From Methanothermus fervidus DSM 2088 (GTDB lineage Archaea > Methanobacteriota > Methanobacteria > DSM-2088 > Methanothermaceae): a DNA stretch of 32,000 nt. Every line of letters begins with the position of its first letter. Positions within the stretch are counted from its first letter, which is position 1. Of this stretch, positions 5,018-29,989 are shown piece after piece. Location: positions 780,001-812,000 of the forward strand of contig CP002278.1 of NCBI GenBank assembly GCA_000166095.1, in the 5' to 3' direction. The translations under genes were made by a program, and so were the position numbers. The notes under the pieces were generated by a model. It had not been told where the DNA came from and ran no database searches. It saw only the letters and a program-made list of their open reading frames with translations.

Positions 5018-5848
5018 TTATTTTGGTTTGGCCATTAACTCTACTTTTTCTAATAATTCTCCTTTTTTACCATGTGGAGTTCTCTTTACAGTGTCATTTG
5101 ATTTTTCTATTTCTCTAGCTTCTGAAGCTAATTTAGCAGCGATTGATACCATTTCGTGTGCTGAAGCAACAATAGGTATATATTTCTCTGGATCTTGTAC
5201 CATAAAGCATCCTTTTACATCTAGATCAGCAGCTTTTGCTGCTATTTCATACGCTGCCATGGCTTTTGCTTTAGCATATGGATTTTCAAATTCTCCTGCT
5301 TCTACAGCCTTTTCACTGTCTATAATTAATTTTGGAAGTTCTATTTCTTTTCCTGCCTCAAGATCTGATATTAAATCATCTAAAGTTTTATGTATTAATC
5401 TGTATGCACCAGTACATGCTAAAACTTTAATTACATCAGCATTAAATGATGCCATTTCTGTTGGATCAAGGAATTCTCTTCTAGCACCTATCATAGGATC
5501 TGCTTCAACTATTATATATCCAAGACCCTGTTTTTCGATTTCATCTTTAACTCTTTTACCAGGAGCATCTCCTATGATAATGCTAGGTACATCGCTCTCA
5601 GATAACAATTCTCGAGCTTTTGCTGGACCTGGGGCACCAGGATTTGGACTTATGAATATCACTAAATCTCTGTCCATGTCTAACATCTTGGGTACAACAT
5701 CTTCAACTTGTTCAGGATTCATTTTTGCGCTAGATCCAATAACTCTCACATCAATGTTTGGCCTATCAGCTCTTTCATCTAAAAGAAGATCTATCACCGG
5801 AGATGTCCCAATATTTCCACATTTAATTACGCCAATTTTTACAACCAT
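5018..5848 (-). CDS. mtd: F420-dependent methylenetetrahydromethanopterin dehydrogenase
   Basis: Recognisable along its full length: MVVKIGVIKCGNIGTSPVIDLLLDERADRPNIDV..., FISPNPGAPGPAKARELL, GYIIVEADPMIGARREFLDPTEMA, YAKAKAMAAYEIA. GAGGTGA motif upstream of the ATG. Confidence 0.95.
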   Translation of the reverse strand: MVVKIGVIKCGNIGTSPVIDLLLDERADRPNIDVRVIGSSAKMNPEQVEDVVPKMLDMDRDLVIFISPNPGAPGPAKARELLSESDVPSIIIGDAPGKRVKDEIEKQGLGYIIVEADPMIGARREFLDPTEMASFNADVIKVLACTGAYRLIHKTLDDLISDLEAGKEIELPKLIIDSEKAVEAGEFENPYAKAKAMAAYEIAAKAADLDVKGCFMVQDPEKYIPIVASAHEMVSIAAKLASEAREIEKSNDTVKRTPHGKKGELLEKVELMAKPK

Positions 5849-8623: not shown

Positions 8624-9301
8624 ATGACAAAAAGAGAAATTTTAAACAAGGCTTCATTGTTGCTTAACATGGGCAGGTTTAGCGATGCATTATACCTCTA
8701 CAACAAAGTTCTTGAAGAAGATCCTGACAATTGTGAGGCTCTAAACAATTCAGGTATAGCATTGCTCTTTCTAGGCAAATATGAGGAAAGTATCCAATAT
8801 TTTGATGAAGTATTAAAAATAAAAAATGATAGTGGGGCATGGATTAATAAGAGTAATGCATTAATAAACCTCGGGAGATATGAAGAAGCTATTGAATGTT
8901 GTGATAGAGCTTTAGAGATAGCAATCAATGATTCAGAAAAGGTTTATGCATTAGTAAATAAAGGTAATGCGCTTTTTAGTATTGATGAATACGATGAAGC
9001 TTTAGATTGCTATGATGAAGCATTGAAAATAAATCCAAACGACGTTGGTATATGGAACAATAAAGGTAATTTATTAAAATCAATGGGTAAGTATGAAGAA
9101 GCTATTGAATGTTTCGATAAGGCTCTGGAAATAGATCCTAGAAGTATTGGCAGTTGGTACAATAAATCATTGGCTTTGGAAGCATTAGGTGAATACGAAG
9201 AAGCTCTAAAATGTATAGAGAATGTCATTAAAGCTTATCCTGGATTTAAACCTGCCATGAAAATAAAAGAAAAGCTTAAAAAGAAATTGAAAAATGAATA
9301 A
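8624..9301 (+). CDS. TPR repeat protein (about six 34-aa tetratricopeptide repeats)
   Basis: Repeated G.YEEA(I/L).C(F/Y)D.AL.I.P motifs. At the DNA level the first 22 nt of two repeat cores are identical (tatgaagaagctattgaatgtt at 8879 and 9092). An A/T box about 20-26 nt upstream of the ATG and no ribosome-binding motif suggest a possibly leaderless mRNA. Confidence 0.85.
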   Translation: MTKREILNKASLLLNMGRFSDALYLYNKVLEEDPDNCEALNNSGIALLFLGKYEESIQYFDEVLKIKNDSGAWINKSNALINLGRYEEAIECCDRALEIAINDSEKVYALVNKGNALFSIDEYDEALDCYDEALKINPNDVGIWNNKGNLLKSMGKYEEAIECFDKALEIDPRSIGSWYNKSLALEALGEYEEALKCIENVIKAYPGFKPAMKIKEKLKKKLKNE

Positions 9302-13318: not shown

Positions 13319-13987
13319 GTGTTGTTCGTCAAGGAAAGGGACATTGTGGTCCCTGGAGAAAAATTGGCAGGAAATGATTATATTGCGGGTAGAGGAACTT
13401 TTATTGAAGAAGATAAAATATATTCTTCTGTTGTAGGATTAGTATCAATAAAAGGGAAAAGAATTGAAGTTATTCCTCTCCAAGGTAAATATATACCTAA
13501 AAAAAATGATAGTGTTATTGGGAAGGTCGTTGATGTAAAATTTGCAAGATGGATTGTCGACATAAGATCTCCTTATTCTGCTATTTTACCAGTTTCTGAA
13601 GTTATAGATAAAGGTAAAAAGAATTTAGAAGAAATATTTGGCATTGGAGATACATTATTTTTAAAAATTATAGAAGTAGATGAAGTTAAAAAAGTTAAAC
13701 TAGGTTTACATGAGGGTGGCCCAATAAAACTTGAAGGTGGAACATTAGCATATATAACACCTAGTAAGGTTCCTAGAGTCATTGGAAGAAAAGGATCAAT
13801 GATAAAAATGTTAAAAAAATTGACGAATTGCGAAATCTTACTAGGACAGAATGGCGTAATTTGGGTTAAAGGCGATAAAAAAATGGAAGAAATTGTTAAA
13901 CGTGCATTAGAGATGATAGATAGAGAAGCACATACTTCTGGACTTACTGATCGTGTTAAAGAATTTATAATTAGATCTATAGAATAA
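13319..13987 (+). CDS. rrp4: Exosome complex RNA-binding subunit Rrp4 (S1 + KH domains)
   Basis: VVPGEKLA...[21 protein letters not shown]....WIVDI (S1) and [13 protein letters not shown] (KH). GTG start with GGAGAG upstream. Confidence 0.9.
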
Positions 13988-13989
13988 GG

Positions 13990-14703
13990 TTGATGATAAT
14001 CGTGCCAGATACAGTAGAATTCGTTAGAAAAGATGGAAGAGCATACAACGAACTTCGACCAGTAAAAATTAAAGCAGGAGTATTAAAAAGAGCAGATGGA
14101 TCATCCTATATTGAGTTAGGGTCCAATAAAATATTAGCAGCGGTATATGGTCCTAGAGATCCTCAAATAACAAAAATAAAGAGACCAGATAGGGCAATAA
14201 TTAGGTGTAGATACAATATGGCACCATTTTCTGTAGAGGAACGAAAAAGACCAGGACCTGATAGAAGATCAATAGAGATTTCAAAAATAACAGCAGAAGC
14301 TTTAGCGCCTTCTATAATTTTAGAAAAATTTCCAAGATCATCAATTGATATTTTCATTGAAGTTTTGGAAGCAGATGGTGGAACAAGATGTGCAGGAATA
14401 ACTGCTGCATCTGTTGCACTTGCAGATGCAGGAATACCTCTTCGTGATTTGGTAGTCGCATGTTCAGCAGGTAAAGTTAATGGTCATGTAGTATTAGATT
14501 TAACTGAAGAAGAAGATAAAGAAGGTGAAGCAGACGTTCCTGTGGCAATAATGCCCAGAACTAAAGAAATAACATTATTACAAGTTGATGGAGAATTGAC
14601 ACCTGAAGAACTTGAAAAAGCTATAGATCTTGCTATTGAAGGTTGTATGAGTATAAATAAACTTCAAAAAAAAAGCATTGAAAGAAAAATATGGGTGTAT
14701 TGA
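13990..14703 (+). CDS. rrp41: Exosome complex exonuclease Rrp41 (RNase PH fold)
   Basis: [64 protein letters not shown]. The exact start is uncertain (TTG 13990, ATG 13993 or GTG 14002). Confidence 0.9.
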
Positions 14704-14705
14704 CC

Positions 14706-15503
14706 ATGGAAATAATTCCGGAAATAATGAAAGAAGATATAATAAGTCTTATTAGCAATAACAAAAGATTGGATGGCAGGTCTTTCTATGAATTTAGAGA
14801 TATAAAAATTAAAACAGGTGTAATATCTAAAGCAGAAGGTTCAGCAAGAGTCAAATTAGGAGATACACAAGTTCTTGTTGGTGTAAAACCAACAATAGGT
14901 GAACCATTTCCAGATAATCCTAATTTAGGAATAATAATAACAAATTCAGAGCTTTTACCAATGGCATCTCCTACTTTTGAGCCAGGGCCTCCTGATGAAA
15001 GATCCATAGAGCTTGCTAGGGTCGTTGATAGGTGTATAAGAGAAAGTAATATGCTTGATTTAGAAAAGCTATGCATAATTGAAGGTGAAAAAGTTTGGAT
15101 ACTTTTCATAGATCTCCATATTTTGGATTATGATGGGAATTTGTTTGATGCCTCTGTACTTGGGGCAGTAGCAGCATTAATGGATACAAAGTTACCAAAA
15201 GTTAGCATTGAGGATGATGAAGTAGTCATTGATGACAGTTCAGTTGAGTTACTTGATATCAAAGATAAAGTTGCTATGTGCACATTTGCAAAAATAGGTG
15301 ATGAATTAGTATTAGATCCTTCTTTAGAGGAAGAAGAAATACTTACAGCAAGATTATCAATAGGAATGAATTCAGAGGGAAAAATATGTGCCATGCAAAA
15401 AGGTGGAAAAGGTTCATTAAGTAGAGAGGATATATCAAAAGCTATAAATATTGCAGAAGAAAAAACACCTGAACTGTTACAACATTTAGAGAATATTAGG
15501 TGA
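14706..15503 (+). CDS. rrp42: Exosome complex subunit Rrp42 (RNase PH fold, non-catalytic)
   Basis: [41 protein letters not shown] and [21 protein letters not shown] 14706 is preferred; the track start is 14691. Confidence 0.9.
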
Positions 15504-17058: not shown

Positions 17059-17334
17059 ATTACAGGTTAAAAAATTTAAAACTATCAAACCTAGAATAAT
17101 TCAAGTAAAAACTCGTTAATGTTGTATTGTAAAACATAAGTTAATTCATGAGTATTTTATATGGTGTTGACTATGATAATTTGTTTTCAGGAAATATAAT
17201 CTACTCTTATTTTTTGGAATGGAATATAATGTGGATTTAATACAATATTAAGCTTACAATAACCAGTATATAGCTAGATATACAGGAAAAGAAGAAGGAT
17301 ATGTTGGCATGTGGTAATAGTGGAGGAAATATTG

Positions 17335-18267
17335 ATGAGTCTTATTTTAGCATATGTCGGAAAAAAAGGTTGTGTTATAGCTGGAGACAAAAGAAAAATT
17401 GCATATTTTGGTGATAAGTCTTCTAGGAAAATTCTAGAAGAAAAATTGTATACCGGTAAAATAAAAACTTTAGATGAGCTTTTTGAAGAAGCTAAAAAGT
17501 TAGGAGTATCAATAAATATAACTGATAATGCAAAGAAAGTAAGAGAAAAGGGGCATGTTGCAATCGGAGAAGTAGGAATAAAAGCTACACATAGTGCAAA
17601 AAGAAGAAGATTATATGCGACAACTAACTGTTATGAAATTATAGAACTTGAAGGCTCAAAAATTGTTAAAAGAAAAAAAGGTAATAGTGCTCTGATTGTT
17701 TTTGGAAATAGAATAACAAAAAAAATTTCCAATGAAATTTTAAAAAAAGAGTTTAATCCAAAAATGAGTTTACAAGAAATAGCAAATTTATTTAAGAAAA
17801 TAATAAAAAAAGCATCGGAATTAACTCCAACAATAAATAAGTCTTGTGATATCGTGATTAAAAATCCTATACTTAATAAAGAAATGGCAGAAAAGATATT
17901 GGAGATGAGTATATCAGAAGATATTAAAAACTTGCGAAAATGGAGAAAATCTTTAAAAGATAAGATGATAAAAGCTGCAAAAGAAATAACTTTAGCTTCC
18001 AAAATTATTACAGAAGGAGATGTCGGAGAAATAGTTGATATAAAAGATGGAAAAATAATGGTCAAATTAAATCAAGACGTTTGTGCATATGACTTAAATT
18101 GGGAAAAAGTTGCTAATCCGGGAGAAATTGTTACAATGACTGCTGACAATCCTTCAGAGATTAAAGTTGGAGACAAAGTAGTTATAGAAAATGAAGAATT
18201 ATATGTGGAGCGTTGTAAAGAACCTTTACAATGTGAAGTAATACTAACATATTGTAACAGAGGATAA
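17335..18267 (+). CDS. Proteasome-beta-like Ntn-fold protein, DUF2121/Connectase candidate
   Basis: ATG 17335 has GGAGGA upstream. N-terminus MSLILAYVGKKGCVIAGDKRKIAYFGDKSSRKI mirrors the proteasome-beta pattern: nucleophile at mature position 1, G-D-x-R 16 residues later, and K-I about 30 residues in. Has a C-terminal beta-rich domain and is about 310 aa. Found in a methanogen. Confidence 0.5.
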   Translation: MSLILAYVGKKGCVIAGDKRKIAYFGDKSSRKILEEKLYTGKIKTLDELFEEAKKLGVSINITDNAKKVREKGHVAIGEVGIKATHSAKRRRLYATTNCYEIIELEGSKIVKRKKGNSALIVFGNRITKKISNEILKKEFNPKMSLQEIANLFKKIIKKASELTPTINKSCDIVIKNPILNKEMAEKILEMSISEDIKNLRKWRKSLKDKMIKAAKEITLASKIITEGDVGEIVDIKDGKIMVKLNQDVCAYDLNWEKVANPGEIVTMTADNPSEIKVGDKVVIENEELYVERCKEPLQCEVILTYCNRG

Positions 18268-18302: not shown

Positions 18303-19088
18303 GTGGGGGAGGTAGGTTTTGCTACCATAACACAAAAAAGAATGACTGGTGGATTTAGGATAGATCACCTAGATAACAAAAATTTTCATATTGATCCAGG
18401 ACCTGGAGCATTTATAAGAACATATCAATTTGGTTTAAATCCCATAAACCTTGATGTTGTACTTGTATCTCATGCACACACTGATCATTATTCAGATGTT
18501 GAAGTCATGATTGAAGCAATGACAAAAGGAATGACTAGAAGAAGAGGAACTATAGTTGGAAGTAGGAGTGTAATAGAAGGTTATAATGATTTTGGTCCCT
18601 GCATATCAAAGTATCATTTAACAAAATCTGATGTTGTAGTGATGGAACCTGGAGACACGACAAAAATTGGAAATGTTAAAATTAAGGCCACACCCACACA
18701 ACATGGAGACCCAACAGGTATAGGTTTTCAATTTAAAACAAAAGATATAGTTATATCCTATACATCAGATACAGCATATTTTGAAGATTTAGGAAAATAT
18801 CACAAAGGCGCTGATATATTAATTGCCAATGTTATAAGGCCAAATGGTGAACGTATTAGAGGGCATATGTGTACAGATGATCTCAAAAAACTTTTAAATA
18901 TTGTAAGACCAAAATTAACTATAATGACACATTTTGGTATGAAAATGATTAATAATAACCCTGCTAAAGAGGCTAGAGATCTATGTAAAGAAACATCGTT
19001 AAGAGTTATTCCAGCATCTGATGGAATGAAAATAGATTTATCAAATATTGCACAAAGAACCTTAAATGATTTTTTCATGCCTCGGTAG
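18303..19088 (+). CDS. MBL-fold metallo-hydrolase, apparently frameshifted near the N-terminus (see finding); likely true start GTG 18281
   Basis: HAHTDH metal motif, later His/Asp ligand positions (TQHGD, SYTSD, MTHFG). A strong AGGAGGTGG ribosome-binding motif serves GTG 18281 in the -1 frame, which encodes VYLTFLGSGGGRF. The last 10 nt overlap tRNA-Thr. Confidence 0.75.
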   Translation: MGEVGFATITQKRMTGGFRIDHLDNKNFHIDPGPGAFIRTYQFGLNPINLDVVLVSHAHTDHYSDVEVMIEAMTKGMTRRRGTIVGSRSVIEGYNDFGPCISKYHLTKSDVVVMEPGDTTKIGNVKIKATPTQHGDPTGIGFQFKTKDIVISYTSDTAYFEDLGKYHKGADILIANVIRPNGERIRGHMCTDDLKKLLNIVRPKLTIMTHFGMKMINNNPAKEARDLCKETSLRVIPASDGMKIDLSNIAQRTLNDFFMPR

Positions 19089-19151
19089 CTCAGTTGGTAG
19101 AGCGCGGGACTCGTAATCCCGTGGTCGCGGGTTCAAATCCCGCCCGAGGCT
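19079..19151 (+). tRNA. tRNA-Thr (anticodon CGU)
   Basis: Cloverleaf folded by hand. Acceptor GCCTCGG/CCGAGGC; D arm GCTC-AGTTGGTA-GAGC; anticodon arm CGGGA-CTCGTAA-TCCCG; variable loop TGGTC; T arm GCGGG-TTCAAAT-CCCGC; discriminator T. CCA is not encoded. It is a GC-rich island in AT-rich DNA. Confidence 0.92.
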
Positions 19152-20637: not shown

Positions 20638-21393
20638 TCACTGTCTGTAACCATGAGCAAAATCTCCATTATAAAGTTTTGAACGTTTAAAATCTTTTGC
20701 TTCTAAGATTTTACCAACTATTATTATTGCAGATCTCTTTATTCCTTTATTTTCAACCTTTTCAACAATATTCTCTAAGGTACCTTGTAAAATAGTTTCA
20801 TCTTCCCATGATGCGTTTTTAACTACTGCAACAGGAGTATTTGGTGGATAATGCTTTAACAGCTTATCCACAATTTCTCTGATTTTATGTACACCAAGAA
20901 ATATACACATAGTAGCTCTATGTTTTGCTAACTTTTCTATATCTTCTCGTTTGGGAACTGGAGTTCTTCCAGCAGGTCTTGTTATTATAACAGTTTGAGA
21001 AATTTCCGGCAGTGTTAATTCAACTTTTAAAGCTGCCGCAGCTGCGAATAATGAACTTACTCCAGGTATTATTTCATATGGTATACCTCTTTTATCTAAC
21101 TCCCTCATTTGTTCTGCGATAGCTCCATATATTGAAGGATCCCCAGTATGGATTCTAGCAATTATTTTATTTTCCTTAGCTTTATCTTCAATTATCTCTA
21201 TTATTTCCTCCAATGTCATAGATGCACTATTGTAGACTTCTGCATCATCTCTTGCAAATTCTAAAATTTTTTCATTCACTAATGATCCTGCATATATGAT
21301 TACATCAGCTTTTTTTATTATTTTATAAGCTTTAAGAGTTAACAATTCAGGATCTCCAGGACCACCACCAATAAAAAATACCTTTCCATGCAT
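20638..21393 (-). CDS. cbiF: Cobalt-precorrin-4 / precorrin-4 C11-methyltransferase
   Basis: VFFIGGGPGDPELLTLKA....ADVIIYAGSLV, HTGDPSIYGA, GVSS and the C-terminal FAHGYR motif. Confidence 0.9.
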   Translation of the reverse strand: MHGKVFFIGGGPGDPELLTLKAYKIIKKADVIIYAGSLVNEKILEFARDDAEVYNSASMTLEEIIEIIEDKAKENKIIARIHTGDPSIYGAIAEQMRELDKRGIPYEIIPGVSSLFAAAAALKVELTLPEISQTVIITRPAGRTPVPKREDIEKLAKHRATMCIFLGVHKIREIVDKLLKHYPPNTPVAVVKNASWEDETILQGTLENIVEKVENKGIKRSAIIIVGKILEAKDFKRSKLYNGDFAHGYRQ

Positions 21394-21395
21394 TT

Positions 21396-21647
21396 TTACA
21401 CCCTATAGAATAAAATATAAGCTAGTATCATCAATATTATCGCAAGTACAACTCCCAATATCGCCATCTGACGGTCACTGCCAAATATAATTGGAATAGG
21501 GCCTATCATTACAACTCCGCCAGTTTTCACTTCAGATTTCCCAGTTTTAGAAACACTAGCATATTGAAGAATACTTCCAACAATTACTAACAACATTCCA
21601 AGGAATACAATGACAATCCCAAATAACACTACTAGATCGGCTCGCAT
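21396..21647 (-). CDS. Small two-TM membrane protein (DUF131/TIGR00304-like)
   Basis: Two hydrophobic helices flank the GGVVMIGPIPIIFGSD motif. ATG 21647 with AGGTG upstream is preferred over the track's GTG 21656. Tightly linked upstream of cbiF. Confidence 0.5.
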   Translation of the reverse strand: MRADLVVLFGIVIVFLGMLLVIVGSILQYASVSKTGKSEVKTGGVVMIGPIPIIFGSDRQMAILGVVLAIILMILAYILFYRV

Positions 21648-21694
21648 ATTTGACACCTATGTTTATTGCTACAACTGTGTGTTAAGTGAAACTA

Positions 21695-22159
21695 TTAATC
21701 TTTTATTTTGTATTTTGCATTTTTTTCCTTTATTATATCCATTTCAACCATTGCATTGAGAATTTCCTTTAACCATTCTTTTGAACATAATTTTTCTTCA
21801 CAGAAGAAATAGTCACATGGACAAGATATCTTATTTTTTATTTCTTTTTTATCCATCCAATCTCCTGACTTTGACAATATATCATATACTGCCAGACACC
21901 ATAAAGACTTTTCCTTGACTTCATCTTCTACATCTATAGTTTCTATTTCACCTTTTAAATTTTTGGCAAATTTTTTGACTTTATCTATTTCACATTCTGG
22001 TACAAGTGTTAATGCCTTTATTTCTTCCCTTAAAAAATATATGCCTCTATGAACCTCAAATTTGTCTTGTCTAAGTATTAATCCACCTATATCTTCTATG
22101 AATTCTTCAAATTCATCGTACTTATAAACACCACCTGTAAACAAAACTAATTCATACAT
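21695..22159 (-). CDS. Hypothetical protein with a C-terminal CPC-x4-C-x4-C cysteine cluster
   Basis: Good coding composition. ATG 22159 (MYELVLF) is preceded by GGGGAA; the track's TTG 22174 is unlikely. I recognise no family. Confidence 0.5.
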   Translation of the reverse strand: MYELVLFTGGVYKYDEFEEFIEDIGGLILRQDKFEVHRGIYFLREEIKALTLVPECEIDKVKKFAKNLKGEIETIDVEDEVKEKSLWCLAVYDILSKSGDWMDKKEIKNKISCPCDYFFCEEKLCSKEWLKEILNAMVEMDIIKEKNAKYKIKD

Positions 22160-22250
22160 ATCTACATTCCCCAAAAACTTATATAATTTTTTGACTTAAT
22201 TTGTGTATTTGTATATTAAGATTTGAAATTATTTACTTATTAAGGTAGGG

Positions 22251-23317: not shown

Positions 23318-24103
23318 ATGAAAAAAGAAATTGGAATCATTGTTTTAGCGGCTATAATCATTGCCATTGTTGGATTATATGCAACAGGATTTTTTGAAAC
23401 AAAACACGAAACAATAACAGTCTATGCAGGAGCCGGATTGATGAAAGCCGTAAATGAAATGAAGTCAGAATTTGAAAAATCAAATCCAGGAGTTACTGTG
23501 AACGTTAGGTATGGATCTGGTGCTGAGATCGTAAGTTTATTGAAAACACAGAAATCTGCAGATGTACTAATTGCTCCAGCAAATGATTATATGAAAACAG
23601 CGATAAAAGATGGATTAATAAAACAAGAAACCGTAAGGAATGTTACAAAACACGTACCTGTTTTAATTGTGCGTAAAGGTAACCCTAAGAATATTAAATC
23701 TATTTATGATCTCACAAAACCAGGCATAAGAGTAGCTGTTGGAGATCCAAAAAGTCCAGCAATAGGAAAAAAGACGTGGAAAATATTGAAAAAAGCAGGG
23801 ATAGAAAAAGAAGTGGAAAAAAACATTGTAGCTAAAACGGGCACTGTCAATGAGTTATTGACATATGTTGCAACAGGACAAGCAGATGCAGCAATAATAT
23901 GGGAAGACATGGCAACATGGAGTGAAGCACAAGGTAAAATTGAAGTTATACCAATACCAAAAGATATTAATGCTATAGACACTGTTTCTATAGGGGTGAC
24001 CACCTGCACAAAGAATTACAAATTGGCTAAAAGTTTTGAAGATTTTGTTTTAAGTCCAAAAGGCAAATCAATTTGGCAAAAATGGGGATTTAAAGTTTTA
24101 TGA
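23318..24103 (+). CDS. modA: Molybdate/tungstate ABC transporter substrate-binding protein (ModA family), N-terminal TM anchor
   Basis: ITVYAGAGL..AVNE....F, VRYGSGAE, ADVLIAPAN, VAVGDPKSPAIGK and TGQADAAIIWE match the type II periplasmic-binding-protein ModA pattern. Confidence 0.8.
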   Translation: MKKEIGIIVLAAIIIAIVGLYATGFFETKHETITVYAGAGLMKAVNEMKSEFEKSNPGVTVNVRYGSGAEIVSLLKTQKSADVLIAPANDYMKTAIKDGLIKQETVRNVTKHVPVLIVRKGNPKNIKSIYDLTKPGIRVAVGDPKSPAIGKKTWKILKKAGIEKEVEKNIVAKTGTVNELLTYVATGQADAAIIWEDMATWSEAQGKIEVIPIPKDINAIDTVSIGVTTCTKNYKLAKSFEDFVLSPKGKSIWQKWGFKVL

Positions 24104-24113
24104 GGGTCTAAAG

Positions 24114-24878
24114 ATGAAATTTAAACATGTTCTTATTTTCTTTTCTTTTTTAGTTATAATATTGTTTTTTGTTACATTGACAAGTTTATTTGGAATGATA
24201 GATACAAAGAAATTTCTTACATCAGTTTTTTCCTATGAAATGCTATATTCGATAAAATTAACAATTTTAACATCTGTTTGTGCGACTTCATTAACAATGT
24301 GTACAGCTATACCTGTTTCATATGCTATGAGTAGGTATAAATTGCCATTTAAAAAATTAGGCAGAAGTATTTTAGTTGTTCCAATAGCATTGCCGGAATT
24401 AGTAGTTGGAGTTGCATTGGTATTATTATTCAGTCCTGATCATTTAGGTAGAATTATACCTTTAAGTTTTACAGTTCCTGGAATAATTTTAGCCCAATTC
24501 TTTGTTGCACTACCTTATGCAATTAGAATATTACATACGACTTTCAACTATATAGATGAACGTTATGAATTTGTTGCAAGATCTTTAGGATGTTCTGAAT
24601 TTGGAGCTTTTAGACGTGTGACACTACCATTAGCAAAAAATGGTATATTAGCATCATCTATCATAGCTTTTGCGAAATCTATGGGTGCATTTGGTGCAGT
24701 ACTAATGATGGGGGGAGGAACCTACTTAAAAACTGAAACATTGCCAATCACTGTATATTTGAACATGTCTTATGGTAATTTAGACATGGCAATTTCAGCT
24801 GCTTGTGTGTTGTTAATCATTTCATTCGCAATTCTAATAATAATTGAAAAGTATTTTAAGAATGTTCCTGTTTATTGA
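24114..24878 (+). CDS. modB: Molybdate/tungstate ABC transporter permease (ModB family)
   Basis: Six hydrophobic segments and the EAA-type loop YIDERYEFVARSLGCSEFGAFRRVTLPLAKNGI. Confidence 0.8.
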   Translation: MKFKHVLIFFSFLVIILFFVTLTSLFGMIDTKKFLTSVFSYEMLYSIKLTILTSVCATSLTMCTAIPVSYAMSRYKLPFKKLGRSILVVPIALPELVVGVALVLLFSPDHLGRIIPLSFTVPGIILAQFFVALPYAIRILHTTFNYIDERYEFVARSLGCSEFGAFRRVTLPLAKNGILASSIIAFAKSMGAFGAVLMMGGGTYLKTETLPITVYLNMSYGNLDMAISAACVLLIISFAILIIIEKYFKNVPVY

Positions 24879-25819: not shown

Positions 25820-28800
25820 ATGTTATCAAAAATAATAAAATCATGGGGGCTCATGATATTTGTTGTATTGTTTTGCTTATTTATCATCGAAACATCGTTT
25901 GCAATGCCTGTAAAATTGGATAACACAACAAAGCCAAAAATAATCATAATAAGCTCAAGCCCCAATGAAGTTGCAATTATAAATAAAGTGGCAAATGATA
26001 GTAATGTTAAGAATATTGTAAATGTAACTGCAAAACTTGGCACTACTTATGCTAATTTATCATTTGATTTGGATGGTGATTTAATAATTTTTGGAACACG
26101 AAGTGGTTTATCAGCGCCAGTATGGGAAACACTCAAACCAAAATTAGAAAAAGCAAAAAAAGAAGGCTCAACTATCATGATATGTGTTGAACCATCTACA
26201 AGAAACAACTATGCCCCAATTTTGGGTTTTCAAACAGTGAGTACGTCTGACCCTCGTTTCAATAAAACACTTGCATACTTAGAATATACTTGTGAGAAAA
26301 ATATAAAAAATTTGATCCTTTATTTAGCAGCTTCATTTTTTAACTGTACTGTGTCCTTTGAGCCACCAGAACAACGTCCGTTGTGGGGGATATATCATCC
26401 AGATGCACCTAAAGTATTTAGTAATCTAACAGAATATTTGGAGTGGTATATCAAAACTGGTAAATATCATTCAGATTCTCCAACAGTTGGGATAATAACC
26501 ACAGAGTATAGTGATATGGCACGAGATCGTCCACTTTTAGACAAACTTGTAAAAACCTTTGAATTAAAAAATTGCAATGTAATAGTTTCTACTTATACAT
26601 ATAGAGATCCAAATTCACTTAATTATCTTATGATAAACGGTACGCCAGCTATTGATGCTGCCATAGTAATTTCGAGGGGATCTACACTTAATTCGCAAAA
26701 TTGGACGAAAGGAATTGAAGATCTTCAAAAACTTAATGTTACAGTTCTCAATGGTATTAGGATATTCTCAACCAACGTAACTCTTGACACTTGGGAAAAT
26801 AGCATAGAAGGCGTGCCATCGGCAGAACTTTATCAGCTGGCATTTGCAGAAATGGATGGAATAATTGAACCAATAGTTATAAGTGTTAAAGCTCTTGACC
26901 CTGAAACTGGCGTTATATACAATAAACCTATTGATCATCAAGTAGAATGGCTAGTAAATAGGACTATTTCATGGATGAAACTCAAAAGACTTAACAACTG
27001 GAACAAAAAAATAGTGATAACATACTATAGTGAAGATGGTGGTAAAGCCAATATAGGAGCAGACATCGACTATTATCTTAATGCTCCAGAAAGTATAGCA
27101 ACTATACTTAAAGCTTTGAAAGAAAGAGGTTATAATTTAGGTAATAAAACATTGCCCTCAGGATCAGAGCTTGCAAAACTCATGGCAGAAATAGGAAGTA
27201 ATATAGGAACATGGGCACCTGGAGAACTCCAAAAAAGAATAAAATTAGGTCAAGTAATACTTATACCTGAAGATGAATATCTTAAATGGTTTAATGAATT
27301 ACCTCCTGAAAAACAAAAAGAAGTTATAGATGTTTGGGGTCCACCACCAGGAAAAATAATGGTATACACAAATGGTACTAAGAAATATATTGTTATACCT
27401 AAATTAGAGTTTGGAAATGTTCTTCTCCTACCTGAACCTGTATGGGGATGGTTACAGAACAAAACTACACTTTACAATGTGGGAAAACTTCCTCCAACTC
27501 ATAACCTACTTGCATTTTATTGGTGGATTAAAAAAGTTTTTGGTGCAAATGCAATCCTATCAATATTTAGTTTAGTTGAACTGATGCCTGGAAAGCAGAA
27601 TGGACTTTCAAGTAAAGATTGGGGAGCTATAATGCTCCAAGATATGCCCATAATCCATGTATTACCTACAGATGCTCCCGCAATTTTTGATAAACGAAGA
27701 GCTAACATGCTTATTATAAATTTCATGCCGCCGGTTCTTTGTTCTTCAGAACTTTATGGAAATTTTTCGGAATTATATGAAAATATTAAACTTTATAAAG
27801 AATGTGCTGATGATATGCTAAAAAATGCTTATAAAAATAAAATTATTTACTTAGCTAAAAAAATTGGTTTTAATTACAAAAATGATAATTTTGATGAATT
27901 TGTTGCAAATATTACAGCATATCTTGAAGATATCAAAAATAGTTACATACCTAAGGGGTCCCACATATTAGGGAAAGCACCAGAAGGTGATGAACTTTTA
28001 CAGTTACTTATTGCTATGCTTCCAGAAATTCGAGACCAGAATACTACATTAATAAAACTTTTACTAAAAGAGTGTATAATTAATAATTTAACACCTGAAG
28101 AAGCTCAAATGAAAATAATTGGAAAATTGAATGTTAATTTAACAAATTTACTTCAACTTGCACTTGATTATGCTCAAAGAATCCGCAATGTTAGTAATGA
28201 AATAACTGCTATACTTGCTGCACTCGAGGGAAGATACATAATCCCTGGTCCAAGAGGCGATCCTATACGCAATCCTGAAGTTCTCCCAACCGGTAGAAAT
28301 TCTTATCCATTTGATCCAAGAACCATACCCACAAAAGTTGCATGGGAAACAGCGGTTAAACTTGTGGATACATTCCTTAAGAAATATGTTAATGAACACG
28401 GAACATATCCTACTAAAGTTGCATATGTACTTTGGGCTTGCGAAACAATGAGACATCAAGGAATTATGGAAGCAGAGATACTTTATTTAATGGGTGTTAA
28501 ACCTATATGGGATTCCAGAGGTAGAATTAAAGGCATTGAACTTATAGAAAATCTTACAAGGCCACGCATAGACGTTTGTATTATTACATCAGGACTTTAT
28601 AGAGACTTACATAGAGACATGATAAACCTTCTTGATAAGGCTGTTAAAATTGCCGCAAATGCTAATGATACTATTAACTACATTAAACTTAATTCTGAAA
28701 AAATATATACGAAATTAAGAAGTGAAGGTTACAATGAATCTTATGCAAGGGAATTATCGCTCATTAGAATATTTTCTGAAGAACCTGGTGCATATTCACC

Positions 28801-29989
28801 TGGACTTCAAGAAATTATACCGGCTGCCAATATGTGGAATGAGCGAGAAGAGTTAGCTAACTTTTATATCGAAAGACTTTCATCATCTTATGGTGAAAAT
28901 GTGACAGGATTAAAAAATTCATTAGTTTTTAGAGAAAATCTTCGGGATGTAACAGTGGCTATGTTTAGTAGATCTTCAAATGTTTACGGTGTTCTTGATC
29001 ATCCTATGGTTGCAGCATATTTTGGAGGTCTCAGTCTTGCAATTGAAAAGGTTCGGGGAACAAAACCTGAAATGTACATAAATAATCTTAGGGTTGAAAA
29101 AAATGCAAAAATTGAAACACTAGAGCAATTCATTAAAAGAGATCTTATATCAAGATACTTCAATCCTAAATGGCTTATAGGCATGATAAGTAGTGGATAT
29201 GATGGTGCAAGATATATGGATTCATTTGTAGAAAACCTTTGGATATGGCAAGTTACAAATCCAGAATTCGTGTCAAAATCTACTTGGGACACAGTAGTAG
29301 ATGTTTACGTCAAAGACATCTACAACCTAGGCCTTAAACAATTCTTCAACACCCATAACCCCTGGGCAAGACAATCATTAATAGCTACGGCATTAGTGGC
29401 AGCATACAAAGGATTCTGGAAAGCAGATAGAGAAACTTTAACTTTCCTAGCAAGAGAATACATTGAAAGTGTCAATAAGTATGGAGTTACATGCTGCCAT
29501 CACACATGTGGCTATATCGACCTAAACAACTTCATAGTTAGAATATCAAATATGCCACTTCCATCATTACAAAAATTTGCAGCTGCATTTGCAGAAGCTA
29601 CTGGAGTTAAGTTATCAATCCCTGGAATTCCAACTACACCACAACCTTCAATTCCAGGAGCACCATCACAACTAGGAGCTCCAACTGCATTAGGAAGAGT
29701 AGGAATTGGAACTGCAGCAACAAGGGGAGTTTCACCAGGAATTTCAGGTCCTTCAGGTAGAGTTGGTGGTGAAGTTGGTGCAAGAGGAGCAGCTCAAGCT
29801 GCTGGAGCAGCAGGTAAAGCAGGAATTACAGGTGCTGCAGCAGGTAAAGGAGCAGGAAAAGCATATGAGATTACACCAGTGTCTAAAGGAATTGGAAAGC
29901 CAGGAATTCCATTCGCAGGAATAATCGGAGTTATAATATTGATTGCATTAATAGCAGCAGGATATCTATTGAGGAGGCCTGAGCGATAG
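25820..29989 (+). CDS. CobN/BchH-family (class I chelatase large-subunit homolog) protein with signal peptide, Pro/Gly/Ala-rich stalk and C-terminal membrane anchor
   Basis: Family motifs LEGRYIIPGPRGDPIRNPEVLPTGRNSYPFDPRTIPT, HILGKAP, YVLWACETMRHQG, SRSSNVYGVLDHPMVAAYFGG. N-terminus KSWGLMIFVVLFCLFIIETSFA|MP resembles a signal peptide. About 25 N-x-S/T sequons by my count. C-terminus GKPGIPFAGIIGVIILIALIAAGYLLRRPER. Confidence 0.85.
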   Translation: MLSKIIKSWGLMIFVVLFCLFIIETSFAMPVKLDNTTKPKIIIISSSPNEVAIINKVANDSNVKNIVNVTAKLGTTYANLSFDLDGDLIIFGTRSGLSAPVWETLKPKLEKAKKEGSTIMICVEPSTRNNYAPILGFQTVSTSDPRFNKTLAYLEYTCEKNIKNLILYLAASFFNCTVSFEPPEQRPLWGIYHPDAPKVFSNLTEYLEWYIKTGKYHSDSPTVGIITTEYSDMARDRPLLDKLVKTFELKNCNVIVSTYTYRDPNSLNYLMINGTPAIDAAIVISRGSTLNSQNWTKGIEDLQKLNVTVLNGIRIFSTNVTLDTWENSIEGVPSAELYQLAFAEMDGIIEPIVISVKALDPETGVIYNKPIDHQVEWLVNRTISWMKLKRLNNWNKKIVITYYSEDGGKANIGADIDYYLNAPESIATILKALKERGYNLGNKTLPSGSELAKLMAEIGSNIGTWAPGELQKRIKLGQVILIPEDEYLKWFNELPPEKQKEVIDVWGPPPGKIMVYTNGTKKYIVIPKLEFGNVLLLPEPVWGWLQNKTTLYNVGKLPPTHNLLAFYWWIKKVFGANAILSIFSLVELMPGKQNGLSSKDWGAIMLQDMPIIHVLPTDAPAIFDKRRANMLIINFMPPVLCSSELYGNFSELYENIKLYKECADDMLKNAYKNKIIYLAKKIGFNYKNDNFDEFVANITAYLEDIKNSYIPKGSHILGKAPEGDELLQLLIAMLPEIRDQNTTLIKLLLKECIINNLTPEEAQMKIIGKLNVNLTNLLQLALDYAQRIRNVSNEITAILAALEGRYIIPGPRGDPIRNPEVLPTGRNSYPFDPRTIPTKVAWETAVKLVDTFLKKYVNEHGTYPTKVAYVLWACETMRHQGIMEAEILYLMGVKPIWDSRGRIKGIELIENLTRPRIDVCIITSGLYRDLHRDMINLLDKAVKIAANANDTINYIKLNSEKIYTKLRSEGYNESYARELSLIRIFSEEPGAYSPGLQEIIPAANMWNEREELANFYIERLSSSYGENVTGLKNSLVFRENLRDVTVAMFSRSSNVYGVLDHPMVAAYFGGLSLAIEKVRGTKPEMYINNLRVEKNAKIETLEQFIKRDLISRYFNPKWLIGMISSGYDGARYMDSFVENLWIWQVTNPEFVSKSTWDTVVDVYVKDIYNLGLKQFFNTHNPWARQSLIATALVAAYKGFWKADRETLTFLAREYIESVNKYGVTCCHHTCGYIDLNNFIVRISNMPLPSLQKFAAAFAEATGVKLSIPGIPTTPQPSIPGAPSQLGAPTALGRVGIGTAATRGVSPGISGPSGRVGGEVGARGAAQAAGAAGKAGITGAAAGKGAGKAYEITPVSKGIGKPGIPFAGIIGVIILIALIAAGYLLRRPER
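29615..29900 (+). repeat. Low-complexity, locally GC-rich Pro/Gly/Ala-coding region (stalk of the CobN-like protein)
   Basis: Encodes SIPGIPTTPQPSIPGAPSQLGAPTALGRVGIGTAATRGVSPGISGPSGRVGGEVGARGAAQAAGAAGKAGITGAAAGKGAGK. Short direct repeats are present (gcagcaggtaaag twice; ccaggaatt/ggaattcca several times). All frames are open here, which generates spurious ORFs. Confidence 0.7.

Follow-up and report, generated by a model that had tools for sequence, protein, structure and literature searches.

A CobN-like protein of Methanothermus fervidus with predicted surface exposure and a replaced chelatase metal site

The subject of this paper is a CobN-like gene of Methanothermus fervidus DSM 2088, which lies in a stretch of 32,000 nt of contig CP002278.1 (positions 780,001 to 812,000). 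We call this whole stretch the window, and all positions refer to it (Table 1). The 1389-aa product is 100% identical to an entry in nr named 'cobaltochelatase subunit CobN [Methanothermus fervidus]', which is annotated there from Met12. From the analysis below we believe that the protein probably serves, outside the cell, in the capture or transfer of metals or metal-ring compounds and has no part in the synthesis of vitamin B12.

Methanogens need much cobalt, nickel and iron; these metals are scarce in sulfidic habitats, and how methanogens acquire them is poorly known. Methanogen genomes hold many CobN homologs, which have so far been assigned to cobalamin synthesis or taken, as a guess, for nickel chelatases (PMC3087415). 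The label 'cobaltochelatase subunit CobN' is a systematic annotation error in the archaeal homologs.

The gene, its fold and its predicted topology

An initial annotation, made from the letters of the sequence, had described the open reading frame (ORF), its CobN-family motifs, its termini, its sequons, a stalk and the neighboring genes, and we were able to locate every one of these elements where it had been placed. It had also proposed delimiting the domain with Pfam. This was run, and PF02514 is full length, spanning aa 152-1207 of the protein and positions 2-1090 of the 1090 in the model (E = 2.7e-292). None of the nine NCBIfam equivalog models for CobN/BchH reached its cut-off, and the best of them, NF004645, gave 1033 bits against a required 1619.

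We built an AlphaFold2 model of aa 29-1228 on a 78-sequence alignment. It had a mean pLDDT (predicted local distance difference test) of 92.1 and a pTM (predicted template-modeling score) of 0.91, and in it the whole six-domain head-neck-body architecture of class I chelatases is predicted to be intact. With Foldseek the model had TM-scores (template-modeling scores) of 0.80 to HmuS (9d26), 0.80 to M. tuberculosis CobN (7c6o) and about 0.70 to ChlH (4zhj). The best sequence match in the PDB was HmuS, with 413 bits by phmmer, followed by CobN with 352 and ChlH with 343; the family profile gave 772 bits for HmuS, 650 for ChlH and 605 for CobN.

HmuS, or BtuS, is a CobN/ChlH homolog of Bacteroidota (Bacteroides, Porphyromonas) with a signal peptide and with helices at the N- and C-terminus (PMC12583661, PMC13227078). 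It is membrane-bound and faces the periplasm, and it converts heme to protoporphyrin IX and Fe(II) using NADH and no ATP (PMC12583661, PMC13227078, PMC6460266); its periplasmic exposure is supported by an E. coli model (PMC13227078). The initial annotation had reasoned that ATP is unavailable outside the cell. That reasoning is sound, and the M. fervidus protein is not a classical ATP-driven chelatase. Its suggestion that an exported CobN fold has no precedent had to be given up, because the periplasm-facing, ATP-independent HmuS/BtuS is already known (PMC12583661, PMC13227078). The HmuS authors mention many archaeal homologs whose role is unclear (PMC12583661), and in nr some Methanosarcina homologs already go under the source name 'CobN-like chelatase BtuS for metalloporphyrine salvage'. 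Within the CobN/ChlH superfamily, and judging from these sequence matches, the M. fervidus protein is most likely an archaeal counterpart of the HmuS/BtuS branch.

The N-terminus has the layout of a signal peptide, with the n-region MLSKIIKSW (two Lys), the h-region GLMIFVVLFCLFII and the c-region ETSFA-MP (here and below a hyphen marks the predicted cleavage site). The h-region has 14-16 hydrophobic residues, which is too short for a stable transmembrane helix, and positions -3 and -1 are taken by small residues. The closest orthologs share this N-terminal plan (MQKQ..TSFA-E, MKKH..TSFA-E and MKQ..TVSA-E). Because they keep the same Lys-rich n-region, we favor the start at 25820 over Met12 and consider a start at Met29 unlikely. 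The initial annotation had named the Met29 start as the case that would speak against export, and the n-regions of the orthologs fit the 25820 start better.

Hydropathy finds only two transmembrane-like segments, aa 5-23 and aa 1366-1384. Since positive charges flank both helices on the same side, the positive-inside rule places the body outside the cell. Both ends are features of the family: 183 of 212 non-redundant members have an N-terminal hydrophobic region, 196 of the 212 have a C-terminal transmembrane run with a net-positive tail, and the exceptions are mostly shortened gene calls. Orthologs that lack both segments would have counted against the exported, C-terminally anchored topology that had been claimed. 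The orthologs retain both, and the claim is well backed by these counts.

We think it very likely, from these sequence features, that the CobN body lies outside the cell and that the C-terminus anchors the exported protein. Export would be by the Sec pathway, and the signal peptide would be cleaved probably after Ala28. The CobN-fold body of about 1200 residues would then sit outside the membrane, borne by a flexible stalk of some 110 residues and one C-terminal helix, with the basic tail in the cytoplasm. The stalk has a Pro, Gly and Ala content of 51%, compared to 17% in the body, and the G+C content, about 31% in the window, climbs to 0.40 in the stretch that encodes it. A tandem-repeat search of the stalk gave just one trivial match of 12 bp and 1.9 copies. 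By inference, such a stalk would let the body reach into or past the pseudomurein layer. Surface-type domains (DUF11 and CarboxypepD_reg) are present on some relatives.

We also considered the C-terminus as an archaeosortase (PGF-CTERM) substrate. The C-terminal 41-58 residues of seven family members, namely the M. fervidus protein and six homologs, and of a phospholipase-C-like neighbor were scanned against NCBIfam; PGF_CTERM gave 14 bits against a cut-off of 24.5, covering only the helix and tail, and there was no other CTERM match. Because no archaeosortase model passes, we treat the C-terminus as a plain transmembrane anchor.

The protein has 25 sequons of the form N-x(not P)-S/T, 20 of them N-x-T, and all lie within aa 35-1027. 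We took the sequon statistics at the level of the ORFs in the 32-kb window. The density is 18 per 1000 aa, compared to 3.6 per 1000 aa in the other 33 ORFs, and composition-preserving shuffles of the protein predict 10.1 per 1000 aa (z = +4.9). A recount agreed with the earlier figures of about 25 sequons here and one each in aroC and mtd. The family as a whole shows this excess (median z = 4.0), and three positions, Asn68, Asn518 and Asn756, are common to 65-73% of homologs. M. fervidus makes an N-glycosylated S-layer protein. On the strength of the sequon pattern we think that the CobN-like protein is probably N-glycosylated too.

Table 1. Coordinates of the CobN-like gene, its parts and other features of the window.
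Feature	Residues	Position	Strand	Basis or remark
CobN-like gene	1-1389	25820..29989	+	complete; stop codon 29987-29989
Predicted Sec-type signal peptide	1-28	25820..25903	+	hydropathy, -3/-1 rule; cleavage inferred before Met29
Predicted extracellular body	29-1245	25904..29554	+	sequon statistics, AlphaFold2 model
CobN/Mg-chelatase domain, six-domain class I chelatase fold	152-1207	26273..29440	+	Pfam, Foldseek
Domain III loop LSIFSLVELMPGK	580-592	27557..27595	+	replaces HFG(T/A)HG; phmmer and family alignments
Segment PIIHVLPTDAPAIFDKRR	610-627	27644..27700 (span begins one codon earlier, at Met609)	+	alignments
Domain V motif VLDHPMVAAYFGG	1058-1070	28991..29029	+	alignments
CCHHTC cluster	1225-1230	29492..29509	+	conserved in both archaeal clades
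Low-complexity Pro/Gly/Ala-rich stalk	1246-1358	29555..29893	+	composition
C-terminal anchor: KPGIP, transmembrane helix FAGIIGVIILIALIAAGYLL (aa 1365-1384), tail RRPER		29897..29986	+	hydropathy, conservation
MJ0548-type connectase homolog		17311-18267	+	PF09894 and PF25274
Single tRNA gene		19079-19151	+	76 bits; between a metallo-beta-lactamase-fold ORF and aroC, with a few-base overlap with both
cbiF (precorrin-4 C11-methyltransferase), DUF131 membrane protein, short McrC-like protein		20638-22174	-	cbiF 354 bits
Zinc-dependent phospholipase C-like protein, 260 aa		22251-23033	+	PF00882, E = 4e-19
ModA-type binding protein and Mo_ABC_porter-type permease		23318-24878	+	TIGR01256 108 bits, above cut-off; permease 209.5 vs 210.3

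Metal-site residues in two archaeal clades

The initial annotation had reported clear motifs of the CobN/Mg-chelatase H family. The motifs it listed (GPRGDP, LPTGRN and VLDHP..YFGG) are all in the translation; the His, Glu and Asp of the metal site are missing, and this is the main anomaly of the protein. These residues matter in characterized relatives: the H538A variant of HmuS is inactive (PMC12583661), and in Brucella CobN two Co(II) ions sit among H554, E593 and D1100 (2026 bioRxiv preprint). The domain III loop of the M. fervidus protein has a 2-residue deletion and places Phe583 at the position of the catalytic His (HmuS His538, Brucella CobN His554). Pro620, in TDAPAIF, stands at the position of the catalytic Glu (HmuS Glu577, ChlH Glu660, CobN Glu593). 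In VLDHPMV of domain V, Pro1062 is at the position of CobN Asp1100 and Met1063 at that of HmuS His1209.

The replacement is not a lesion of a single gene. In the alignment of 212 sequences, 126 lack the His motif (group A, which includes the M. fervidus protein) and 85 keep it (group B), and the two groups differ at the same set of positions (Table 2). The domain V motif of group B, LDxDDxxQxxGG, matches that of canonical CobN, LLDSDDYYQFEGG. Three further His that are conserved in group B, at positions 405, 553 and 635 of the M. fervidus protein, are lost in group A, and His193, His561, His715 and the CCHHTC cluster are common to both groups. The cluster is a possible metal-binding site, judging from its residues. 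Pro in place of Glu620 marks the sub-clade to which the M. fervidus protein belongs (M. fervidus, P0002-P0006 and L001).

Table 2. Residues at seven positions (numbering of the M. fervidus protein) in the two groups.
Position	Group A	Group B
583 (His of HFGTHG)	Phe 115/126	His 81/85
589	Met 116/126	Leu 79/85
613	His 113/126	Tyr 81/85
620 (catalytic Glu)	Glu 79/126	Glu 80/85
1061	His 120/126	Asn 59/85
1062 (Asp of LDxDD)	Pro 93/126	Asp 81/85
1063	Met 102/126	Asp 74/85

In a neighbor-joining tree made with the motif columns removed, group A is monophyletic (55/55, with no group B intruder). Its mean identity is 54% over about 1000 columns. The motifs FSIFS, IHVLP, DHPMVAAYFGG and CCHHTC are conserved at 81-95% in group A across three orders, and the M. 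fervidus protein retains every group A residue: the (L/F)(S/T)IF(S/T) loop, the His of IHVLP, (D/E)HPM..(F/L)GG and CCHHTC. Because the replacement residues are so strongly conserved, we take the site to be remodeled rather than decaying. On these alignments and this tree, the replacement of the metal site is a character of the clade. Met ligands are favored in extracytoplasmic metal sites, according to a review (PMC7689651); PMC10206600 gives no active-site residues.

The conservation also bears on whether the protein is a structural or adhesive glycoprotein of the envelope, in which the CobN fold would be a mere scaffold with no ligand-related role. The lost metal-site residues, the long stalk, the heavy load of sequons, the membrane anchor and the fusion of relatives to surface-type domains would all suit such a protein, as would the fact that the gene is an orphan in M. 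fervidus and in its closest relatives (loci L001 and L041). A scaffold does not need this degree of identity over so many columns, and the group A motifs, which would line the cavity, are more conserved than a scaffold requires. Group A is also repeatedly linked with transport and cobalamin genes, as described in the next section. We consider a purely structural role to be unlikely.

Gene neighborhoods and proposed function

A scan of species-representative genomes gave 387 relatives. Nearly all of them are from Methanobacteriales, Methanosarcinales, Methanomicrobiales, Methanocellales, the anaerobic methanotrophic archaea (ANME-1 and ANME-2) and Syntrophoarchaeum, and a few are from bacterial metagenome-assembled genomes (MAGs). 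For the gene context we used 80 loci and clustered all of their ORFs. Three neighbor families, which we call T, U and V, recur in 42-44 of the 80 loci. T is DUF2162 (PF09930), a polytopic protein of about 240 aa with an invariant PCPxC motif, U is MotA/TolQ/ExbB (PF01618), and V is DUF2149 (PF09919). At least two of the three are found in 42 of the 80 loci, and in 23 of the 30 loci where four or more genes are visible on each side. The PCPxC motif lies in a predicted membrane segment in 44/44 of the DUF2162 neighbors (for example, L003 19282-20010) and in 119/120 database homologs. It is reminiscent of the CPC metal-translocation motif of P1B-type ATPases.

Two of these families occur beside HmuS. 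In the hmuYRSTUV genes of P. gingivalis, HmuU is of the MotA/ExbB type, HmuV contains DUF2149, and HmuT is an uncharacterized membrane protein. Because HmuU and HmuV belong to the same families as U and V, we conclude that the archaeal loci carry an hmuSTUV-like core, and in Methanobacterium the gene order S-T-U-V (S being the CobN-like gene) is seen. Methanogens and ANME archaea have no outer membrane and no TonB receptors. With no outer membrane, the archaeal U and V cannot serve an outer-membrane receptor, which is the role assigned to them in Bacteroidota, and the simplest reading is a direct link between U/V and the CobN-like protein.

Both groups of CobN-like genes, S(A) and S(B), take part in such loci. 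ANME-1 and Syntrophoarchaeum have the order T-U-V-S(B)-cbiM-(small ORF)-cbiQ-(ABC (ATP-binding cassette) ATPase)-cbiT-cbi methylases. Methanoculleus, Methanocalculus and Methanosarcina have T-U-V-S(A), Methanobacterium has S(B)-S(A)-T-U-V, Methanosarcina and Methanolobus have S(B)-S(A) tandems, and a few S(A) genes are orphans. Among 41 group A genes, 17 have T, U or V at most five genes away, 14 have a group B paralog at most two genes away (often directly upstream) and 4 are clear orphans. Genes for cbi or cob functions are present in 13 of the 80 loci, and no AAA+ chelatase partner was found beside the homologs in the 80 loci.

We also observed tandem arrays of three or four exported CobN-like genes, 1400-2100 aa each, in Methanobacterium, Methanosarcina and Methanolobus (L003 225-18811; L002 1-12518; L015; L055). 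Some of these genes are fused to CarboxypepD_reg/DUF11-type surface domains, and in the arrays the group B gene usually comes just before the group A gene.

One bacterial locus is informative about the biosynthetic role. L030 comes from a Desulfobacteraceae MAG; its elements are, in this order, a pair of cobalamin riboswitches, a TonB-dependent receptor, T, U, V, a CobN-like gene, cbiK, cbiA and cbi methylases. The CobN-like gene is of the group A type and is 43% identical to the M. fervidus protein, and the riboswitch aptamers lie in tandem at 5285-5778 (+) with 94 and 83 bits. Because this operon is under B12 control and has a class II chelatase (CbiK) of its own, we conclude that its CobN-like protein is not a biosynthetic chelatase. 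L030 alone was positive for riboswitches: the window, nine archaeal loci and four further loci, bacterial or possibly mis-binned, gave no match. Other bacterial relatives adjoin TonB-dependent receptors, DUF4198 and FeoB. L082 1-15000 has the order FeoB-DUF3793-DUF2162-MotA/ExbB-DUF2149-DUF4198-TonB-dependent receptor-CobN-like-TonB-dependent receptor-DUF4198, an arrangement that suggests a metal-uptake island. In M. barkeri the 'BtuS' proteins vary in abundance with the iron/sulfur source, and homologs there go up on a change of that source.

In M. fervidus the gene is an orphan in its locus. We found no T, U or V in the 32-kb window by tblastn or by hidden Markov model search of the six-frame translation, and the window has no second CobN-like gene (a group B paralog) and no cbiMNQO. 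The absence of an AAA+ partner nearby, which the initial annotation had claimed, stands: no CobS/T or ChlI/D was found with Pfam among 29 window ORFs, with the four ORFs at 13319-15503 left out of the scan. The gene cbiF lies 4.4 kb upstream, and given the linkage with cbi genes elsewhere this is suggestive, but weak. In L001, the locus of the closest relative (67% identity), cbiM is 1 kb downstream of the CobN-like gene.

The cbiF gene and the names in nr and NCBIfam would fit the protein as it is annotated, namely as the cytoplasmic cobaltochelatase CobN of cobalamin synthesis, which would have to start at Met29 and be tail-anchored. This is extremely improbable in our view. The protein falls below every NCBIfam equivalog cut-off, its metal-site residues are absent, the scanned window ORFs include no CobS/T or ChlI/D, the N-terminal signal is conserved in the orthologs and the sequon excess points outside the cell. 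Methanogens also use the early-insertion pathway with CbiX (PMC3087415), and in L030 the CbiK gene adjoins the CobN-like gene.

The reading we favor, and hold with about even confidence from the sequence evidence, is that the protein is an HmuS-like surface protein for the acquisition of cobalt, nickel or corrinoid in which the canonical chelatase site is no longer used. The canonical metal site (the His of HFGTHG, the catalytic Glu and the Asp of LDxDD) is replaced in group A, and His613, His1061, Met1063 and Met589 together with CCHHTC would take over from it. Because the canonical site is replaced throughout group A, the protein presumably does not insert or remove metal by the known mechanism. 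It would bind a metal ion, a metal-tetrapyrrole or a corrinoid at the cell surface and then pass the ligand on. Since relatives adjoin CbiMNQO and cobalamin genes, cobalt, nickel or corrinoid is the likely currency. In the relatives, group A proteins would work beside the canonical exported paralog, the DUF2162 membrane protein and the MotA/ExbB-DUF2149 pair.

Some points weigh against this reading. The link to riboswitches comes from a single bacterial MAG locus. The remodeled site could still catalyze de-chelation by way of other residues. With no T/U/V, group B paralog or cbiMNQO in the window, the argument from context is borrowed from relatives at 37-67% identity. Last, a cytoplasmic TPR (tetratricopeptide repeat) protein of 225 aa at 8624-9301 (+) has 5 sequons, or 22 per 1000 aa (z = 3.9). 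This weakens sequon density as a unique marker of export, and because TPR repeats reach a similar density we use it as supporting evidence and not as proof.

The second point amounts to a different protein, an active extracellular de-chelatase like HmuS that strips Co, Ni or Fe from an environmental metal-tetrapyrrole by way of the remodeled site (His613, His1061 and Met1063), perhaps with power or help from T/U/V-type proteins whose genes lie elsewhere in the genome. HmuS is the closest characterized relative, the replacement residues of group A are strongly conserved and of ligand type, and group A genes stand alone with T-U-V in Methanoculleus, Methanocalculus and Methanosarcina and can thus be the sole CobN-like partner of that module. 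In L030 the group A gene is in a cobalamin-riboswitch operon which has its own CbiK for biosynthesis. Against this, all three residues that are critical in CobN are absent, including the one tested in HmuS (H538A), and group A tolerates other residues in place of the catalytic Glu, which suggests that its chemistry is gone. The heme ligands specific to HmuS, Met79 and His254, are absent as well, and M. fervidus shows no T/U/V in the 32-kb window. We regard a de-chelatase as possible, on the doubtful side.

A broader proposal goes beyond binding and hand-off at the surface and is rather unlikely as it stands. A machine that harvests metal outside the cell and is homologous to the hmuSTUV core may be widespread in methanogens and ANME archaea, with group B performing the chemistry and group A acting in substrate reception or hand-off. 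The proton-driven MotA/ExbB-DUF2149 pair would stand in for the AAA+ ATPase motor, and the DUF2162 permease, with its PCPxC motif, would take up the released metal. The machine would feed cobalt or nickel into the synthesis of cobalamin and possibly F430, and in M. fervidus the orphan protein would serve as a surface receptor on its own.

The other genes of the window do not add partners. Ten window neighbors were compared with the 80 homologous loci by tblastn; the radical SAM (S-adenosylmethionine) gene turned up again in a single locus, L001 of the closest MAG, and ModA, the permease, the phospholipase-like ORF and the glycan genes in none. The neighbors named in the initial annotation (a ModA-type importer with no ATPase, a divergent radical SAM gene and glycan-type genes) are therefore present as described, and they are not conserved beside the homologs. 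The ModA-permease pair is of the molybdate/tungstate type and has no ATPase gene after it. The permease gene and the 3' end of the activase-like radical SAM gene, which is convergent with it, overlap by 23 nt. Downstream of the CobN-like gene are an O-antigen-polymerase-like gene and a weak, sub-threshold match to UDP-GlcNAc 2-epimerase (26.4 vs 30.6 bits). The short McrC-like protein matches only the N-terminal part of PF04609 (residues 7-79).

From its sequence, the phospholipase C-like protein, 2.8 kb upstream of the CobN-like gene, also seems to be exported and anchored at its C-terminus: it has a hydrophobic leader at the N-terminus, the sequons NTNTT and NNSET near the other end, and a C-terminal transmembrane helix with a basic tail (..PLAPLLLSALMMAVVAIYTRYFRP).

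Comparison with known systems

An extracytoplasmic, ATP-independent CobN fold of the HmuS type is a known kind of protein. What is new, at the level of sequence comparison, is that a whole clade has replaced a catalytic motif supposed to be universal, and that in archaea an hmuSTUV-like module is linked to cobalt and cobalamin genes. We found no published report on the export of archaeal CobN homologs, on DUF2162, on the loss of the motif in group A or on an archaeal hmuSTUV-like module. The archaeal CobN-like proteins are predicted to be surface-exposed, share a partner module with a bacterial heme system, are tied to cobalt transport and cobalamin genes, and fall into a canonical clade and a clade without the His. 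These findings turn the role of the archaeal CobN homologs into testable experiments.

HmuS/BtuS (B. thetaiotaomicron 9d26/9p4s; P. gingivalis PG1553) is the closest of the known systems. Like the M. fervidus protein, it has an N-terminal signal or helix and a C-terminal transmembrane helix, and its body lies outside the cytoplasmic membrane and works with no AAA+ partner or ATP, as we predict for the M. fervidus protein. The two differ in their residues. The M. fervidus protein has none of His538, Glu577, Asp1208 and His1209 in register. In the profile alignment, the site-1 heme ligands Met79 and His254 (HGR) of HmuS fall on a Leu-consensus column and on R-G-S. Compared to LSLDHxxEFMGG of HmuS, the D-H pair comes two residues earlier, with Met1063 at His1209 and Ala at Glu1212. 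The M. fervidus protein also adds the Pro/Gly/Ala stalk and the dense sequons.

The systems around them differ too. The HmuS system has HmuY and HmuR, and the host of our protein has neither, having no outer membrane. HmuS deals with heme and iron, whereas the context of the relatives of the M. fervidus protein points to cobalt and cobalamin. M. fervidus is a methanogen without cytochromes.

The group B paralogs of ANME-1, Syntrophoarchaeum and Methanobacterium share the signal peptide, the C-terminal anchor, CCHHTC and the T-U-V partners with group A. They keep HFGTHG, the Glu and LDxDD like true chelatases, and group A, including the M. fervidus protein, lacks them. CobN (Brucella 9uk9, M. 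tuberculosis 7c6o) shares the Pfam family, the six-domain fold, GPRGDP and LPTGRN. However, the CobN of CobNST is a soluble protein of the cytoplasm that depends on CobS/CobT and ATP, and its metal site is H554/E593/D1100, where our protein, predicted to be exported, has Phe/Pro/Pro. ChlH/BchH (Synechocystis 4zhj) belongs to the same superfamily and has the same fold, with the lower structural and phmmer scores given above. It has the HFGTHG motif and Glu660 (altered in the deposited E660D and E660W structures), needs ChlI/ChlD, and is cytoplasmic or plastidic.

Finally, the cobN-exbB-exbD-tonB cluster on pSZ77 of Geobacter lovleyi has no CobS/T, adjoins cobalamin biosynthesis clusters and has an unexplained role (PMC3403914). 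It is a bacterial cluster with an outer-membrane receptor and TonB, and its likeness to the archaeal loci is one of gene neighborhood.

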